Of a stretch of DNA of 64,000 bases, positions 20,237-56,460 are shown one piece after another (the first letter of the stretch is position 1; every line of letters begins with the position of its first letter). The position numbers and the translations under genes are program-made. The stretch comes from an uncultured Actinomycetota bacterium (GTDB taxonomy: Bacteria; Actinomycetota; Actinomycetes; Mycobacteriales; Pseudonocardiaceae): contig CAVQFJ010000018.1 of assembly GCA_963711715.1 (NCBI GenBank), positions 92,137 to 156,136 on the forward strand, in the 5' to 3' direction. The notes beneath the pieces were generated by a model, which saw nothing but the letters and a program-made list of their open reading frames with translations, was not told the DNA's origin and made no database searches.

Positions 20237-21004
20237 ATGCGAACGGTGTGCGGGACGGCGCGGAGGGTGCAGACGCTGATCGGGCGCGGCCGGTCACCGG
20301 GCCCCGCCATCCCGCAGGTGCGCCCCCTCGCCGGCGGGCGACGGCCGCTGCTGACCGACCGGCCCGGCGAGCAACGCCGTGGCGGCGCCCGGTTGGACCA
20401 GGTCGACGGCACCACGTGCGGCAGTGTCGTGCTCGTCGCGCTGTCCGCGTGGGCCGATCCGGCCGAGACACTGCGCCTGGACGGGACACTGCGCCTGGAC
20501 GGGACACTGCGCCTGGACGGGGAGCGCACCGCAGGCGCGGTCACCGGATCGGGGGCCGCGGCCGGGGCGACGGCCGGCGTCGCGGTGGGGTTCGGGGCCC
20601 GCTTCGACGCACGTCAGAAGCAGGTGCACCGGGAGTCGACGAGGTTCTGGCCGCAGTCGCTCGGCACGACGCCGTGGGGGATGGTCGGGTGGCTGCGGCG
20701 GCACGCGCCCGGCGCCGGGCCGTACCGGGTGCGCCTCGTCGACGACGTCTCCGCGCCGGATCTCACCGACGCGCTCGACGCGGTCGGGGGTGCGCTCTCC
20801 GCCGCCCGGCCGGTGCCGCTGCTCGTGGGGTCGCTGGTGCCGCGGCACTACGTGCTGGCGCTCGGACCGCAGGACGGCGACTGGCTGGTGTACGAGCCGA
20901 CGAGCGGGCAGGTGCGGGTGCTCTCGCCGGATCTGGTGCGGTCCCGTCGGCTCGCCCCGGTGCTCGGCTTCGACCGCCTCCACGCCGTCCTGCTCCCGGC
21001 CTGA
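20237..21004 (+). CDS. hypothetical protein, possible papain-fold (C39-like) cysteine peptidase, with an internal tandem repeat
   Basis: LDQVDGTTCGSVVL (Gln/Cys) and later PRHYVLALG..DGDWLVYEP (His/Asp) fit a Cys-His-Asp arrangement. ATG 20237 follows GGAGGA. Confidence 0.45.
   Translation: MRTVCGTARRVQTLIGRGRSPGPAIPQVRPLAGGRRPLLTDRPGEQRRGGARLDQVDGTTCGSVVLVALSAWADPAETLRLDGTLRLDGTLRLDGERTAGAVTGSGAAAGATAGVAVGFGARFDARQKQVHRESTRFWPQSLGTTPWGMVGWLRRHAPGAGPYRVRLVDDVSAPDLTDALDAVGGALSAARPVPLLVGSLVPRHYVLALGPQDGDWLVYEPTSGQVRVLSPDLVRSRRLAPVLGFDRLHAVLLPA
20467..20520 (+). repeat. perfect in-frame 18-bp x3 tandem repeat (GACACTGCGCCTGGACGG) encoding (TLRLDG)3
   Basis: Read directly: units at 20467, 20485 and 20503. 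Confidence 0.95.
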
Positions 21005-21070: not shown

Positions 21071-23698
21071 GTGACCGAGACCCTCCCACCGCGCACGGCC
21101 GACCTCCCCGCCCAGTGGAACCCGGGCGAGGTGGAGGGCGGGATGTACCAGCGGTGGGTGGACGCCGGCTACTTCACCGCCGACGTGCACAGCGACAAGC
21201 CGCCGTTCAGCATCGTCATCCCGCCGCCCAACGTCACCGGCAGCCTGCACATGGGCCACGCCTTCCAGCACTCGCTGATGGACGCGCTGTGCCGGCGCCG
21301 TCGCATGCAGGGCTACGAGGTGCTCTGGCTACCCGGCATGGACCACGCTTCGATCGCCGTCCACGCGCTGGTCGAACGGGCCCTGGCCGAGGAGGGCACC
21401 AGCCGCCGCGAGCTGGGCCGCGACGCGTTCGTGGAGCGCACCTGGCAGTGGAAGGCCGAGCACGGCGGCAAGATCCTGGCCCAGATGCGCCGGCTCGGTG
21501 AGGGCGTCGACTGGACCCGTGAGCGGTTCACCATGGACGAGGGCTCCAACCGCGCCGTCCACACCATCTTCAAGCGGCTCTACGACGACGGGCTGATCTA
21601 CCGCGCGAAGCGGATGGTCAACTGGTCGCCCGAGATGCGCAGCGTGCTGTCGGACGCCGAGGTCATCCACCGGGAGGTGGAGGGCGAGCTGGTCTCGATG
21701 CGCTACGGGGACGGGGACTCGAGCGTCGTCGTCGCCACCACTCGGGTCGAGACGATGCTCGGCGACACCGCCGTCGCCGTCCACCCCGACGACGAGCGCT
21801 ACGCCCACCTCGTCGGGCGGGAGATCGAGCTGCCGCTCGTCGGGCGGATGATCCGGATCGTCGCCGACGAGCAGGTCGACCCGGCCTTCGGCACGGGCGC
21901 GGTGAAGGTCACGCCGGCGCACGATCCGAACGACTTCGAGATCGGCCGCCGCCACGACCTGCCGATGCCGACGATCATGGATGAGTCGGGCGTCATCACG
22001 GGCACCGGCACCCCGTTCGACGGGATGGACCGTTTCGCGGCTCGGGTCGCCGTCCGCGAGGCGCTGCGCGCGCAGGGCCGGATCGTCGCGGAGGAGCGGC
22101 CCTACCTCCACAGCGTCGGACACGCCGAGCGGGGCAAGAAGGAACCGGTCGAACCGCGGCTGTCGCTGCAGTGGTTCGTGAAGGTCGACCCGCTGGCCGA
22201 GGCCGCCGGCGACGCCGTGCGCCGCGGGGACGTCACCGTGCACCCGGCGGAGCTGGAACCCCGCTACTTCGCCTGGGTCGACCACATGCACGACTGGTGC
22301 ATCTCCCGGCAGCTGTGGTGGGGCCACCGCATCCCGGTCTGGTACGGGCCCGACGGCGAGGTCGTCTGCCCCGGCCCCGACGAGGTGCCGCCCGCGGGCT
22401 TCGTCCAGGACGACGACGTGCTCGACACGTGGTTCTCCTCGGGTCTGTGGCCGTTCTCCACGCTGGGCTGGCCGGACGAGACGTCCGACCTGGAGCGCTT
22501 CTACCCCACGTCCGTGCTGCTCACCGGCTACGACATCCTCTTCTTCTGGGTCGTCCGGATGATGATGTTCGGGCTCTACGCGATGGACGGCGTCCGCCCG
22601 TTCGACAGGGTCGTGCTCACCGGCATCATCCGCGACGCGCACGGTCGCAAGATGACGAAGTCCAACGGCAACGTCATCGACCCACTGCTGTGGATGGACG
22701 CCTACGGCACCGACGCGCTGCGCTTCGCCCTGGCGCGGATCGCCAACCCGGGCGTCGACGCGGGTATCGGCGATGACAACGTCGCGGCCGCCCGCAGCTT
22801 CGGAACCAAGCTGTGGAACGCCTCCCGGTTCGCGCTGTCGCACGGCGCATCGCCCGCGTTGCCGCTGCCGAGCGAGCCGACCGACGCCGACGCCTGGATC
22901 CTCGGCCGGCTGCGCGAGGTCCGCGAGCAGACCGACGCGCTGCTCGAGGACTTCCAGTTCGCGAAGGCGGTCGACGGGCTCTACCACTTCACCTGGGACG
23001 AGCTGTGCGACTGGTACCTGGAGCTGGCCAAGGTGCAGCTGCGCTCCGACGATCCCGCCACGGCCGACGGCACCCGTGCCGTGCTCGGGCACGTCCTCGA
23101 CGCGCTGCTGCGGCTGCTGCACCCGGTGATGCCGTTCATCACCGAGGCGCTGTGGCAGCCGCTGACGGGTGGGGAGTCGGTCGTCGTGGCGCCGTGGCCG
23201 GTCGACGCCGGGGCGCCGCCGGATCCGGTGGCCGCCGCCCGGGTCGAGAACGTGCAGCGGCTGGTCACGGAGGTCCGCCGGTTCCGCACGGAGCAGCGGG
23301 TGCCCGACGTCCGGCGCGTCGCCGCCCGCATCGTCGGGCTGGACGAGGCCGGCCTCGCCGGGCACCGGGCGGCCGTCTCGTCCCTGGTCCGGCTGGTGGA
23401 GCCGGGGCCCGACTTCGCGCCGACGGCCACCCTGGAGGTCGTCCTGACCACCGGCACCGTCCTCGTCGAGCTGGACACGTCGGACGCCCTCGACGTCGCC
23501 GCCGAACGGGCCCGGCTCGGGCGCGACCTCGCCGCCGCCGAGAAGGAGCTCGAGCAGGCCGAGCGCAAGCTCGGCAACCCGAGGTTCGTGGAGAAGGCGC
23601 CGACCGAGGTGGTCGACGGGATCCGAGCGCGCCGGGCGGCCGCGGTGGCCGAGATCGCCCGGGTCACGGCCCGGCTCGCGGTCCTGCCGGCATCGTGA
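21071..23698 (+). CDS. valS: valine--tRNA ligase
   Basis: HMGH motif ([15 protein letters not shown]), KMTKS motif, C-terminal coiled coil. Confidence 0.97.
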
Positions 23699-23926
23699 CC
23701 GAGCTTGCGAGGTCACCATTCAACACAGCACCGCCGGGCACGGCGGCGACGAGCGTCAGCGGGGAGCAGACGTGACCGAGCTTGCGAGGTCACCATCCAA
23801 CACAGCACCGCCGGGCACGGCGGCGACGAGCGTCAGCGAGGAGCAGACGTGACCGAGCTTGCGAGGTCACCATCCAACACAGCACCGCCGGGCACGGCGG
23901 CGACGAGCGTCAGCGAGGAGCTGACG
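23696..23926 (+). repeat. 77-bp tandem repeat x3 (MIRU-like) filling the valS-folC junction
   Basis: Unit starts at 23696, 23773 and 23850, with the fourth boundary at 23927. There are 3 substitutions among the copies. Each unit carries a GTG...TGA mini-ORF of 26 codons. Confidence 0.95.
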
Positions 23927-25392
23927 TGACCGGGCCCGAGGGTGACGGCGAGGTCCCGACCCACGAGGACGCCGTGATCTCCCACGTCCTCGACGCGATC
24001 CGCGGGAGCGATACCCCCGACGTCGTCCCCGAGACGTCCAGCGTGGCCGACTTCGCGGAGTTCCTCGCCGTCGAGGCCGCCCTGGACCGGCGCTGGCCCG
24101 AGACGGTGATGACGCCGTCGCTCGACCGGATCTCCGCGCTCGTCGACGTGCTGGGCGAGCCGCACCGCGGCTACCCCGTCGTGCACCTGACCGGCACGAA
24201 CGGAAAGACGTCGACCGCGCGGATGATCGACGCCCTGCTCACGGAGATCGGCCTGCGCACCGGGCGCTACACCAGCCCGCACCTGCAGCGCGCCACCGAG
24301 CGGATCAGCATCGACGGCCGACCCGTCACGCCCGAGCGCTACGTCCAGGTCTACCGGGACGTCGCGCCCTTCGTCGAGCTGGTCGATGCGGGCGAGAGCG
24401 AGCAGTTGTCGAAGTTCGAGGTGCTCACGGCGATGGGCTTCGCGGCGTTCGCCGACGCGCCGGTCGAGGCCGGGATCGTCGAGGTCGGACTGGGCGGGCG
24501 CTGGGACGCGACCAACGTCGTCGACGCCGGCGTCGCCGTGGTCACCCCGATCGGCCTGGACCACGCCGAGTTCCTGGGGCTCGACGTCGTCGCGATCGCG
24601 AAGGAGAAGGCCGGGATCATCAAGGCGGGAGCGGTGGCGGTGCTGGCCGCCCAGGAGGACAAGGCCGTGGCCGAGGTGCTGCTGGAGCGCTGCGTCGAGG
24701 TGGACGCCCAGGTGGCGCGCGAGGGCGCCGAGTTCGGGGTGCGCGAGCGCGAGATCGCGGTGGGCGGGCAGCGCATCACGCTGCAGGGTCTCGGCGGCAC
24801 GATCGACGACATCTTCCTGCCGCTGCACGGGGAGCACCAGGCCCGCAACGCGGCGCTGGCGCTGGCCGCCACCGAGGCGCTCGTCGGGGCCGGACCGCAC
24901 CAACCGCTGGACCCGGACGTCGTCCGCGCGGCCTTCGCCGGAGTGTCCTCACCCGGCCGGCTCGAGCGACTGGCCGCCGGTCCGGGGGTGCCGACCGTGC
25001 TCTGCGACGCCGCGCACAACCCGCACGGAGCCCGCGCGCTCGCGGCCGCCCTCACCACCGAGTTCCGGTTCACGCGGCTCGTCGGCGTGATCGCGGTGAT
25101 GCGCGACAAGGACGCCAGGGGCATGCTCCAGGAGCTGGAACCAGTGCTCGGCGAGGTCGTGGTCACGGCGAACTCCTCGGCGCGCACCATGGACCCCGAC
25201 CAGCTCGGCGCGCTCGCGGTCGAAGTGTTCGGCGGTGACCGCGTCAGCGTCGAACCGGTGTTCGCCGACGCCGTCGCGCAGGCCGCCGAGCTGGCCGAGG
25301 AAGGCGGCGAGTCCGGGGTGGGTGTGATCGTCACGGGTTCCGTCGTGACCGCGGGTGAGGCACGTGCGCTGTTCGGGAAGGAGCCGTCGTGA
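23926..25392 (+). CDS. folC: bifunctional folylpolyglutamate synthase / dihydrofolate synthase
   Basis: HLTGTNGKTSTARM P-loop and Mur-ligase-type domains. The start is placed at GTG 23926, which overlaps the last mini-ORF stop. The upstream in-frame part of ORF 23782..25392 is repeat sequence. Confidence 0.9.
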   Translation: MTGPEGDGEVPTHEDAVISHVLDAIRGSDTPDVVPETSSVADFAEFLAVEAALDRRWPETVMTPSLDRISALVDVLGEPHRGYPVVHLTGTNGKTSTARMIDALLTEIGLRTGRYTSPHLQRATERISIDGRPVTPERYVQVYRDVAPFVELVDAGESEQLSKFEVLTAMGFAAFADAPVEAGIVEVGLGGRWDATNVVDAGVAVVTPIGLDHAEFLGLDVVAIAKEKAGIIKAGAVAVLAAQEDKAVAEVLLERCVEVDAQVAREGAEFGVREREIAVGGQRITLQGLGGTIDDIFLPLHGEHQARNAALALAATEALVGAGPHQPLDPDVVRAAFAGVSSPGRLERLAAGPGVPTVLCDAAHNPHGARALAAALTTEFRFTRLVGVIAVMRDKDARGMLQELEPVLGEVVVTANSSARTMDPDQLGALAVEVFGGDRVSVEPVFADAVAQAAELAEEGGESGVGVIVTGSVVTAGEARALFGKEPS

Positions 25393-48776: not shown

Positions 48777-48863
48777 GTGGCCATGGTGGAGGACGGCACC
48801 GACAGTCCTCCGGGCGGTCCGGTCGACGTGTCACAGTTGTGAACGACTCCGTCGATGGCCGTG

Positions 48864-48960
48864 CTCCCGGTGATCGGGGCTCCCGGTGATCGGGGCTCCT
48901 GGCGATCGGGGCTCCTCGCGATCGGGCGCCCGGCGATCGGGGATCTGGGCCGATCGGCAG
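48864..48960. repeat. degenerate ~16-bp tandem repeat x6 (core GATCGGGGCTCC) in the helicase/moxR divergent intergenic region
   Basis: GATCGG cores at 48872, 48888, 48904, 48920, 48935 and 48952 (spacings 16, 16, 16, 15, 17). Confidence 0.85.
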
Positions 48961-53006: not shown

Positions 53007-53051
53007 TCGCATCGATCGAACTGATGTTCGATCGATGGTACGGTCGACTCC

Positions 53052-53669
53052 GTGACGCACGATCTGGCCTGGCAGCCCTCGCTGCTCGACGACGCCGTCG
53101 TCGAGATCCCTGCGGGCTTCCACGGGGTGCGGCGCCGAGAGCTCGCCGACGGCGCGTGGGTCGATCACGGGCCGTGGTGGTACCGCGGGGCCGACGCGCT
53201 GTTCGCCCGGTTGCTCGCCGACACCCCCTGGTCGGGACGCGACGTGCGGATGTACGACCGGATCGTCACCGAGCCGCGGCTCACGCACCGGTGGCACCTC
53301 GACCACGGTCCGTCGCCGCCCCCGGAGCTGCGCGAGATGGCGATCGCCCTGGGTGAGCGGTACGGGGCCGAGTTCACCCAGGTCGGTGTCAATCTCTACC
53401 GGGACGGGTCCGACAGCGTCGCGTGGCACGGTGACCGCGTCGCCCGCGAGCTCGCCGAGGCCACCGTCGCCCTCGTCTCGCTGGGCGGCGTCCGGCCGTT
53501 CCGACTGCGGCCCGCCGGTGGCGGTCCGTCCCTCACGTTCCTGCCCGGGCCGGGGGACCTGCTGGTGATGGGCGGCAGCTGCCAGCGCACCTGGCAGCAC
53601 TGCGTGCCCAAGACGCGGGTGGCGGGGCCGCGGATCAGCGTCCAGTTCCGGCACGCCTACCCGGAGTGA
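53052..53669 (+). CDS. alkB: alpha-ketoglutarate-dependent dioxygenase AlkB
   Basis: [18 protein letters not shown] (HxD), WQHCVP (His), RISVQFR (Arg pair). Confidence 0.88.
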
Positions 53670-53728
53670 CAGGGCCCAGATCGACAGGGCCCCGGAGTGA
53701 CAGGGCCCCCGGAGTGACAGGACCGGAG
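53661..53728 (+). repeat. degenerate ~16-bp tandem repeat x4 (GGAGTGACAGGGCCC) starting on the alkB stop codon
   Basis: GACAGG cores at 53668, 53683, 53699 and 53716. GGAGTGA occurs three times. Confidence 0.85.
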
Positions 53729-55143: not shown

Positions 55144-55350
55144 CAGCAGTTCGGTGGGCGGCACGCCACCGAGCGGGCCAGTCATGGGGGCGAAGCGTAC
55201 AGATGCCTGCTCGCGGCCCGTCCGGAGCGGTACCGGCTCCGGCATCGACTCCCGTGGAGGACCGGGCGGCCGACTCCGGGTCGTGCCGCCCGAGCTGGGA
55301 TGATGGTGGTGACGAGGTGGTCCGCACCGGCCCACCGGAGAAGGGGAACG

Positions 55351-55740
55351 GTGACGGCGACCGACCAGGCGCTCGACATGGCCCGCGTGGCGGTGTCCGC
55401 GGCGGCGGACAAGAAGGCGCAGGACATCATCGTGCTCGACGTGTCCGACCAGCTGGCGATCACCGACTGCTTCGTGATCGCGTCGGCGCCGAACGAGCGG
55501 CAGGTCCAGGCGGTCGTCGACGGGGTCGAGGAGAAGCTCCGCGAGCACGGGGCCAAGCCGACCCGGCGCGAGGGCGCCCGGGAAGGGCGCTGGGTGCTGT
55601 TGGACTTCGTCGACGTCGTGGTGCACGTCCAGCACACGCAGGAGCGCGGCTACTACGGGCTCGACCGGCTCTGGAAGGACTGCCCGCGCATCCGGTTCCC
55701 CGAGGCCGACGGGCCGGTGGCCGAGGACGGCGACGGGTGA
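55351..55740 (+). CDS. rsfS: ribosome silencing factor RsfS
   Basis: AADKKAQDIIVLDVSDQLAITDCFVIASAPNERQVQAV..WVLLDFVDVVVHVQH. Confidence 0.92.
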   Translation: MTATDQALDMARVAVSAAADKKAQDIIVLDVSDQLAITDCFVIASAPNERQVQAVVDGVEEKLREHGAKPTRREGAREGRWVLLDFVDVVVHVQHTQERGYYGLDRLWKDCPRIRFPEADGPVAEDGDG

Positions 55741-56357
55741 TACGGCGCCTGGTCCTGCTGCGCCACGGCCAGACGGACTTCAACGTCGCGGGCCGGATGC
55801 AGGGCCACCTGGAGTCGATGCTCACCGACTCGGGCCGGGCCCAGGCGTTCGGCGTGGCCCCGGAGATCGCGCGGATGGGGCCCGACCGGCTGATCAGCTC
55901 GGACCTGCGGCGCGCCGTGGACACCGCCGACGTGGTCGGCAGCGCCTGCGGTCAGCCCGTCAAGCTCGACTCCCGGCTCCGCGAGACCCATCTCGGTAAA
56001 TGGCAGGGTTCGACGGTCGCCGAGATCGAGCAGGCCTGGCCGGGGGCGATCTCGACGTGGCGCTCCGACCCGATGTGGGCGCCGCCGGGTGGGGAGTCGC
56101 GGGTCGACGTGGTCCGGCGCTCGCGGCCGGTCGTCGACGAGCTGGACGAGGAGTTCGCGACCGATCCCGATGCCACGGTCGTGCTCGTCGCACACGGCGG
56201 TCTGATCGCAGGGCTGGTCAGCGGCCTGCTCGCGCTTCCGACGTCGGCCTGGCCGTCGATAGGCGGGATCGGGAACTGCCGGTGGGCGACGCTCGCCCGC
56301 CGACACGACCACCCGCGGTGGAGGCTCGCCGGTTACAACGTCGGCGCCGTTGCGTGA
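55737..56357 (+). CDS. histidine phosphatase family protein (GpgP/Rv2419c-like position)
   Basis: RLVLLRHGQTDFN (RHG motif)..VLVAHGGLI. GTGA overlap with rsfS. Confidence 0.85.
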   Translation: MIRRLVLLRHGQTDFNVAGRMQGHLESMLTDSGRAQAFGVAPEIARMGPDRLISSDLRRAVDTADVVGSACGQPVKLDSRLRETHLGKWQGSTVAEIEQAWPGAISTWRSDPMWAPPGGESRVDVVRRSRPVVDELDEEFATDPDATVVLVAHGGLIAGLVSGLLALPTSAWPSIGGIGNCRWATLARRHDHPRWRLAGYNVGAVA

Positions 56358-56460
56358 TCGAGTCCGCGAGGTCACCCTCCGACCTGGCCTGCGCCGACCT
56401 GCGGAGCGCGCTCGGCGGCGGCCACTCGGCCGTTGCGTGCCCCGTGCTCTAGGGTGCGCC

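Follow-up and report, generated by a model that had tools for sequence, protein, structure and literature searches.

The window analysed here, a 64-kb stretch of contig CAVQFJ010000018.1 from an uncultured bacterium of the Pseudonocardiaceae, carries three tandem 77-bp repeats between valS (valine--tRNA ligase) and folC (bifunctional folylpolyglutamate/dihydrofolate synthase). This array is probably an intercistronic repeat of the mycobacterial interspersed repetitive unit (MIRU) type that inserted at the folC start, was amplified and keeps folC coupled to valS. The parts of this reading are of different strength. Comparison of the sequences makes it very likely that the array is a dispersed, copy-number-variable insertion of MIRU type. 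That its three small open reading frames (mini-ORFs) act as a translational relay is favoured with less confidence. The relay has comparative backing in the preservation of the reading frame at gene starts and in covariation that involves the start codon.

The array between valS and folC

The valS gene (21071-23698, +; ORF list; NF004349, 1103 bits) ends in a TGA at 23696-23698 that is overlapped by a GTG at 23695. This GTG opens the first of three mini-ORFs, each of 26 codons plus a TGA (23695-23775, 23772-23852 and 23849-23929, all +). The stop codons of the mini-ORFs overlap GTGs at 23772, 23849 and 23926. The last of these, overlapped by the TGA at 23927-23929, is the start of folC (23926-25392, +; NF047860, 685 bits; TIGR01499). 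The five reading frames therefore form a single chain of GTGA overlaps. The same folC start is chosen by independent gene calls (P0001, 488 aa, 100% identical), and the FolC of a relative aligns from the residue encoded at GTG 23926 (MTNGPDE... vs VTGPEGD...). The G+C content of the window is 73%, and the nearest FolC homologues are from Pseudonocardia.

Tandem Repeats Finder (TRF) reports the array at 23694-23932 (+) with a period of 77, 3.1 copies, 98% matches and a score of 457, by far the highest score of any tandem repeat in the window. The units (23696-23772, 23773-23849 and 23850-23926) differ by exactly three substitutions, all of which change the mini-peptide (F/S, G/E and Q/L). Copies 2 and 3 contain ...SPSNTA...SEEQT and ...SEELT, and unit 1 alone has TTC at nt 25-27 and GGGGAG instead of GAGGAG. 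The GAGGAG of unit 3, which resembles a Shine-Dalgarno (SD) box, lies at 23915-23920 (+), 5 nt before the folC GTG; its equivalents are at 23761-23766 (GGGGAG) and 23838-23843. Two sub-patterns of the unit (23 and 33 nt) each have three copies in the window, solely within the array, where shuffled sequences are expected to hold none. The original prediction, made from the letters of this DNA, had described the 3 x 77-bp structure with its three substitutions, the stop/start chain from valS through three 26-codon mini-ORFs to folC, the change of the mini-peptide by every substitution and the position of GTG 23926 in the folC frame. All four descriptions agree with the TRF result, the unit comparison and the folC start given above.

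No promoter or terminator was found in a scan of 23300-24300, so there is no sign of an attenuator or internal promoter in this interval. The covariance models of Rfam 15, run on 23400-24200 with E up to 10, return noise and no relevant match. Exact look-up of ValS and of the cluster member P0242 returned no record.

In a relative whose FolC is 88% identical (L014), the valS-folC junction is an empty site. It reads ...GCGTCATGACGAAC..., with the valS TGA within the ATGA of folC and no SD box preceding the folC ATG. Relative to L014, the junction in the window is split by 231 bp, with the octamer CGTGACCG on either side (23694-23701 and 23925-23932). A 282-kb metagenome contig from ENA (L130), which matches the window at 99.7% identity along 7.4 kb, contains two units as opposed to three, a difference that rests on assemblies, not on spanning or clonal long reads. 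The first unit of L130 is of the window's unit-1 type (TTC ... CAGAC) and the second is of the unit-3 type (TCC ... CTGAC). Unit 2 of the window (TCC ... CAGAC) is a hybrid of the 5' part of L130 unit 2 and the 3' part of L130 unit 1. By this comparison, it is the recombinant that one unequal crossover or slippage event in a two-unit allele would be expected to produce. A third sequence, a Logan short-read contig (L013), is 99.8% identical and breaks within the last unit. The element is found at valS-folC in three independent assemblies, between which its copy number differs or is unresolved. The earlier suggestion that the locus varies in copy number is upheld at the level of assemblies by these alleles of none (L014), two and three units.

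In L130, valS (294-2850) is called as two ORFs, 294-1928 and 2011-2850, probably owing to a frameshift from an assembly error. The two-unit count of this contig is for that reason also uncertain at the read level.

Frame 1 is open across units 2 and 3, and the folC frame is open upstream from 23776, 150 nt before the true start. Together with the break of the short-read contig in the repeat, this would be accommodated if the array were an assembly artefact or an N-terminal coding extension of FolC. Such an explanation is extremely improbable, because no two of the three units are alike and the element stands at the same site in two independent assemblies. The FolC homologues, including that of the empty site, start at the position of GTG 23926, which is also where gene callers begin the 488-aa protein. 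The same unit is moreover present upstream of dozens of unrelated genes.

The dispersed family and its insertion sites

A scan with a 20-mer of the unit against one genome per species matches 12 contigs, each at a different locus, from Pseudonocardia, Amycolatopsis, Kutzneria, Actinosynnema and uncultured Actinomycetota. A second scan, with a degenerate two-block pattern, yields 113 metagenome contigs. A profile search of 129 sequences recovers 161 units, which group into 127 arrays (single in 100 cases, double in 20 and triple in 7). Clustering of the flanks resolves 88 distinct loci from Pseudonocardiales genomes and soil metagenomes. Two separate arrays are present on each of six metagenome contigs, and 102 of 130 family units are 77 nt long.

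Copy number is unequal at several orthologous loci. One unit in L059 corresponds to two in L120, with identical flanks, and three units in L062 correspond to one in both L051 and L034. At another locus there are three units in L084, two in L096 and L069 and one in L116; at a further one, there are three in L075 and one in L105. Two checks proposed with the original prediction, dispersal of the unit and variation in its copy number among relatives, thus gave positive results: the unit occupies many non-orthologous loci in Pseudonocardia, Amycolatopsis, Kutzneria and uncultured Actinomycetota, and orthologous loci hold one, two or three units. A search of the full-text literature found no paper with the family sequence or with such an element in Pseudonocardiales. 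The family is undescribed as far as could be found, though not categorically new.

The arrays open with GTGA in 114 of 127 cases and close with GTGA or ATGA in 99. A long ORF with a high G+C content at third codon positions (GC3) runs from the terminal start codon in 84 of the 127 arrays, and for 44 of these 84 the first GTGA also contains the stop codon of an upstream gene, as in the complete relay of the window. For most of the rest, the upstream gene terminates sooner, by a few to approximately 100 nt, and an SD-like G-rich tract lies ahead of the first GTG. The downstream genes are functionally unrelated and include those for G6PD, RNase J, NuoF, leucyl aminopeptidase, XseA, a Ser/Thr kinase, a type III polyketide synthase and a SARP regulator.

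Copies lie mostly at gene starts of the form NTGACC, and the direct repeat of the family is approximately 7-8 nt. In the flank logo of 66 independent loci, position -1 is C in 50, and the terminal GTGA is followed by C (57), C (48) and G (40). A direct repeat of approximately CGTGACC(G) therefore encloses the element. The target, as read from these flanks, is the GTG-ACC form of gene start that is common in actinobacteria.

One subgroup is situated in the loop of an unrelated palindrome of approximately 55 bp that resembles repetitive extragenic palindromic (REP) sequences, where it is inserted 5' of TTGACC. Copies at such a place suggest that the sequence directs insertion, and not simply that copies at start codons are the ones that survive. 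The subgroup is flanked by 24-nt inverted repeats, and a MITE (miniature inverted-repeat transposable element) with terminal inverted repeats was considered as a candidate. It was rejected, as the unit is nested in an independent REP-like palindrome that is also found empty in the same contigs. By inspection, the consensus termini of the family (GTGACCGAGCTT... and ...GCGAGGAGNNNNC) are not mutually inverted and so do not form terminal inverted repeats.

The REP-like palindrome (TTCCAACGAACGGCACTTTCGGTCA-ATAGGTTTG-ATCGAAAGTGCCGTTCGTTGGAA) is itself dispersed. It is empty at L016:3729-3790, L071:975-1035, L072:10-70 and L065:56-115, and it is filled in L072, L037, L017, L021, L125, L064 and others. 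Many copies hold one to three 77-bp units, all of out-of-frame lengths.

These sites bear on the alternative of a pure DNA-level element, like REP sequences and palindrome-associated transposable elements (PATEs) or like MITEs. Its hairpins and NTGACC ends would be there for a recombinase or transposase, with the open frame, SD box and start codon as by-products that happened to survive selection. Such an element would insert 5' of (G/T)TGACC even in a palindrome loop with no gene start, be flanked by a 7-8 nt direct repeat and have GTGACC/GGTCAC boxes close to both ends, all of which is seen. The window has 103 GTGACC sites (and 40 CGTGACC sites), of which one has a clear unit array, and this too is in its favour. 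The alternative is nevertheless improbable. The frame is kept solely where a gene follows, and terminal inverted repeats are lacking in the consensus. A pattern scan of viral contigs and blastn searches of phage and plasmid records found no copies of the family and identified no mobile vector. No associated enzyme was identified, in work that included no systematic search for one. The RNA structure of the unit, described below, is a further argument against it.

Frame, conservation and RNA structure

Of 148 units, 104 have a mini-ORF of exactly 81 nt; the start codon that overlaps its stop is GTG in 120 units and ATG in 7. Unit length is 77 or 77+3k nt in 82 of 93 distinct units at gene starts and in 0 of 11 units in non-coding palindrome loops, a contrast for which the Fisher p-value overstates independence because the 11 loop units may share one ancestor.

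The peptide consensus of the family consists of a 12-residue N-terminal block, six unconstrained residues, the motif TS(A/V)SEE and two further residues. There is no codon periodicity in the conservation. The third positions of CTT, TCA, CCA and ACA, which are rare codons in these genomes (GC3 above 90%), are as fixed as the first and second positions. The commonest unit variants are non-synonymous (S/A, F/S, N/S and T/A). Together, these two features place the constraint at the nucleic-acid level, where the frame need merely stay open. Positions 13-32 and 65-70, which were fixed by the scan patterns, are discounted, and the conclusions rest on the other positions and on five arrays found by the profile search alone. 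The codon-level pattern also holds for nt 1-12, which are approximately 85% conserved in the profile-only arrays L062:284 and L014:553.

The recurrence of the N-terminal 12 residues and of the TSxSEE motif throughout the family would fit 26-residue peptides that are functional micro-proteins or nascent-chain effectors. This is very improbable given the missing codon periodicity, the fixed third positions of rare codons and the unconstrained middle six residues. The commonest variants and all three substitutions in the window are non-synonymous, which is also contrary to a role of the peptide. A 74-aa translation of all three unit frames has no match in a protein database of 5.8 billion sequences. 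Gene callers evidently skip the mini-ORFs, and the peptide is without relatives.

RNAalifold and pair counts were applied to 91 distinct units. Two helices are recovered across the family. The first, P1, pairs nt 1-6 (GUGACC) with nt 17-22 (GGUCAC) and holds the mini-ORF start; 99% of cells are paired, and the variants GUGAUC/GAUCAC and GUGAGC/GCUCAC are compensated. In the window, P1 (GUGACC-N10-GGUCAC) is predicted at 23695-23716 (+) and again at 23772-23793 and 23849-23870. The second, P3, pairs columns 47-55, inside the mini-ORF, with columns 74-83, which comprise the spacer and the next start codon, and so encloses the SD box. Here 95% of cells are paired. The covariation score is 0.240, compared to 0.119 for shuffled alignments (0/500 reach the observed score), and with slid partners it does not exceed 0.086. 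If subfamily A is taken by itself, its four variable pairs are 79% paired, compared to 61% after shuffling (0/2000). Pair 54-75 of this subfamily is G-C in 19 units, C-G in 18, U-A in 7 and G-U or U-G in 10.

Column 49 and the first base of the start codon form C-G in 85 units and U-A in 3, which means that ATG downstream starts come with a compensating T. G-U pairs are frequent in P3 and A-C pairs are rare. This excess makes the helix specific to the sense-strand RNA, and both the strand specificity and the compensated start-codon change speak against the pure DNA-level element introduced above. In two typical members (L091 and L075, folded with six downstream bases), P3 has approximately 13-15 bp and includes GUGACC (z = -3.3 and -2.5). 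In unit 3 of the window, P3 would span 23893-23928 (+), with the 5' arm at 23893-23901 inside the mini-ORF and the 3' arm at 23920-23928 in the spacer and folC GUG. Ten of the 11 consensus pairs can form there.

The original prediction had proposed two hairpins for each unit, P1 and a CCGCCG/CGGCGG stem (P2). Both are present in the minimum-free-energy fold of the window units, and only P1 is kept across the family. As a family feature, P2 was rejected, since it is 60% paired compared to 55% after shuffling and no better than slid controls. By these counts, P2 is specific to the lineage of the window. The local SD hairpin of unit 3 (nt 59-66 with nt 72-79) was also rejected, having no family support. 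In the window units, P2 and the local SD hairpin compete with P3.

The GAGGAG box occupies nt 67-72 of the family consensus. Units of different genera are near-identical except in the middle 20 nt. In orthologous pairs whose coding third positions are 80% identical, identity within the element is 92% over nt 5-12 and 33-36, 93% over nt 57-64 and 71-77 and 80% over nt 37-56, figures that come from approximately five independent loci. This suggests in-place selection, or gene conversion, on the 5' module (P1 and CAUUCAACACAGCA) and the 3' module. The CAUUCAACACAGCA tract is unpaired and AT-rich in a genome of 73% G+C.

These observations are what would be expected of a cis-regulatory RNA kept by the host, that is, a structured coupling valve or leader whose 5' module and P1/P3 are read by a trans-acting factor (protein, small RNA or ribosome). 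It would gate downstream translation with copy number as a rheostat, and mobility would be secondary or ancient. This alternative, which overlaps with the preferred explanation, is rather unlikely. It draws on the high identity of the two modules in orthologous pairs, even outside the scan-fixed positions, on the covariation of P3 with the start codon included, on the near-identity between genera and on the unpaired AT-rich tract. It has to contend with downstream genes that share no common function, a close relative (L014) that lacks the element at valS-folC, a copy number that differs between 99.7%-identical genomes and the absence of an Rfam match. The conservation in place is drawn from few loci, and gene conversion among copies could mimic it.

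Several members depart from the typical unit. In the window, a 32-codon ORF beginning VIESARSPSDLACADL... (56354-56452, +) starts at a GTG (56354) that overlaps the TGA of the upstream gene (55203-56357), and it ends approximately 8 nt before the likely start of a DegV-like gene. Over its initial 27 nt this ORF matches the family's 5' module (nhmmer E=0.009), with the P1 hairpin retained, and it may be a second copy in decay. An 11-mer within it, CCTGCGCCGAC, is also present in the M. tuberculosis MIRU unit and may be shared by chance. In L014, a diverged 79-nt copy (553-631; GTGAGC...GCTCA variant) lies in the tig-clpP spacer, and clpP starts at its terminal GTG.

In L007 (1-133), L016 (4309-4410) and L027 (-; reverse-complement 1656-1757), the 5' module alone is partly duplicated in tandem as 30-33 bp units (GTGACCGAGCTTGCGAGGTCACCATTCAAC). 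The mini-ORF is longer by 7 or 11 codons in these cases and the frame is kept. In Actinosynnema sp. CS-041913 (L010:5996-6093, -) and approximately six metagenome units, the mini-ORF stop is lost and the frame continues into the downstream gene. The resulting ORFs are 909-2130 nt long and have N-terminal extensions such as VSEPARSPSNTADRR.... The element may in this way donate N-termini to proteins.

A proposed relay and its comparison with MIRUs

Comparison of the empty and filled sites shows that a 77-bp element entered right at the start codon of folC, with CGTGACCG as its context, where the ancestral start overlapped the valS stop. The array would then have grown from two to three copies by unequal recombination or slippage. 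Each unit supplies a duplicated GTG start, a stop-free frame of 26 codons, a GAGGAG box and, 5 nt on, a GTGA stop/start overlap. Because 77 is 3n-1, the stop/start chain from valS to folC stays intact at any copy number.

Ribosomes that end at the valS UGA would reinitiate at the overlapping GUG and translate each mini-ORF in turn. This translation would melt the hairpins that hold the start codons, namely P1 on the 5' side and, on the 3' side, P3 or the P2 and local hairpin of the window. Reinitiation would recur at every GUGA until folC is reached. Reinitiation and RNA unfolding are the two recognised mechanisms of translational coupling (PMC12548453), and the proposed relay would join them. 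The ancestral junction, with no SD box, would have depended on its ATGA overlap, and the cassette would preserve that dependence. Insertions at start codons are tolerated in this scheme because folC stays coupled to valS. Some ribosomes would probably be lost at each step of the relay, and copy number could, speculatively, tune FolC output.

Five points weigh against this explanation. The scan patterns fixed nt 13-32 and 65-70 and so inflated the apparent conservation at those positions. There is one clear unit locus in the 64-kb window, and every genome matched by the 20-mer (12) has a single match. Approximately a quarter of the arrays are uncoupled from an upstream gene, and some lie in non-coding palindromes. 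The minimum-free-energy fold of the window units uses P2 and the local 3' hairpin, not the P3 of the family. The 5' module is more strongly conserved in orthologous pairs (92%) than synonymous sites (80%), which is beyond what a merely tolerated insertion explains.

MIRUs are described as repeats of 40-100 bp with internal GC-rich inverted repeats, intercistronic and present in approximately 40-50 copies per genome (PMC3184786). They have empty and filled sites with a tetranucleotide direct repeat, and the ends of their ORFs overlap the flanking genes (PMC3184786). According to a 2025 review that cites Supply et al. 1997, MIRUs insert at start codons, their ORF is coupled at a -4 spacing and the impact on the gene is minimal (PMC12548453). 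In the M. tuberculosis senX3-regX3 MIRU (ETR-D/MIRU-4; L129:1856-2090), there are three 77-bp units that start with ATGACC. They hold 25-codon ORFs, with ATGA at the senX3 junction and UGAUG between units.

The family resembles this locus in its 77-bp period, a length that is also that of one class of MIRUs, and, at valS-folC, in the number of units. Further likenesses to MIRUs are the (A/G)TGACC unit start, the position between co-oriented genes, an SD-like purine box near the 3' end and a 25-26-codon ORF that overlaps the flanking stop and start. Both kinds of element have empty and filled sites, a short direct repeat when filled and a variable tandem copy number. The hosts differ, those of the family belonging to Pseudonocardiales, not to Mycobacteriales or the genus Mycobacterium. 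The junctions are GUGA in the family (4-nt overlap, 26 aa) and UGAUG in the MIRU (1-nt overlap, 25 aa), and the direct repeat is approximately 7-8 nt in the family, unlike the tetranucleotide reported for MIRUs. The family has a covariation-supported helix that holds the start codon, whereas folded MIRU units have z scores of approximately 0.

At the nucleotide level, an nhmmer search with the family profile finds no match in the single MIRU locus L129:1856-2090. The Smith-Waterman score against the same locus is matched or beaten by 6-34 of 500 shuffles (p ~0.01-0.07). In-register identity to the senX3-regX3 MIRU unit is 27-29 of 77 positions, with 22 expected, and the shared motif GAGCGT(C)AGCGA(T)GAGG sits at different unit positions in the two. 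Sequence homology to the M. tuberculosis MIRU was considered and, as the alignment is marginal, is not claimed. Of the MIRU-like reading given in the original prediction, the period, position, overlaps and copy variation stand, and nucleotide homology to the one MIRU locus is not demonstrable. MIRU-like is here the name of a kind of element and does not stand for demonstrated shared descent.

Other known systems share some of these features. Gene pairs coupled through NUGA overlaps (PMC12548453) have the same 4-nt stop/start overlap, and their downstream start and spacer pair with sequence of the upstream ORF, whose translation would expose them. The upstream "gene" of the family differs in being a mobile 26-codon cassette, tandem and dispersed, and not a resident gene. 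REP sequences and bacterial interspersed mosaic elements (BIMEs), enterobacterial repetitive intergenic consensus (ERIC) sequences and MITE-type repeats (PMC3184786) are likewise short, dispersed and hairpin-forming, have no transposase gene and are often transcribed in operons. Unlike these, the family has no terminal inverted repeats and is strictly oriented to the downstream gene. It also brings start codon, SD box and stop codon together in a fixed frame and forms head-to-tail arrays with a 3n-1 period. The IS200/IS605-derived PATE or REP-RAYT (REP-associated tyrosine transposase) systems are characterised by subterminal hairpins that a genome-encoded Y1 (HUH) transposase recognises; the family has hairpins near both ends.

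Three shorter tandem repeats are present elsewhere in the window. At 53660-53721 (+), there are approximately 3.9 copies of a 16/17-bp repeat (CCCGGAGTGACAGGGC) with GTGA in each; it straddles the stop of an ORF (53025-53669) and lies upstream of a NadD-like start. A repeat of 16 bp x 5 (GCTCCCGGCGATCGGG) at 48863-48942 lies between minus-strand and plus-strand ORFs. The third, at 20467-20521, is a perfect 18 bp x 3 repeat (GACACTGCGCCTGGACGG).

Arrays of this type are an annotation hazard, as they cause wrong start-codon calls and break short-read assemblies. The open folC frame upstream of 23926 presents the same hazard as RegX3. In public records (P0121-P0130), RegX3 has lengths of 227, 229, 245, 248, 256, 262, 277, 318, 344 and 347 aa, and the longer calls extend upstream into the MIRU region (e.g., P0123, 256 aa, L129:2001-2771).

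It is conceivable, though rather doubtful, that the Pseudonocardiales element and MIRUs are two branches, deeply homologous or convergent, of mobile translational relay cassettes that occur across the actinobacteria and home to NTGACC starts through sequence-specific recognition. They would bear an RNA switch under selection (P1/P3), by which the downstream gene would depend strictly on the cassette being translated. A trans-acting factor, either a mobilising enzyme or a translational regulator, would grip the strongly conserved 5' module, and the output of essential genes such as folC would be set by a heritable copy number that mutates rapidly.

MIRUs have been in use for tuberculosis genotyping for approximately 25 years. 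Their mode of movement is an open question, as is whether their mini-ORFs are translated and coupled to neighbouring genes. The family described here is a second one, from non-pathogenic soil actinomycetes, that is unrelated in sequence and shares the 77-bp (3n-1) design. It offers a helix that takes in the start codon and is backed by covariation, a control in which the frame is kept just where a gene follows, a defined target motif (NTGACC) and evidence of in-place selection on the 5' module, none of which is available for MIRUs. It also provides hundreds of natural insertion, empty-site and copy-number variants, and these make both MIRU questions approachable by comparison and experiment.

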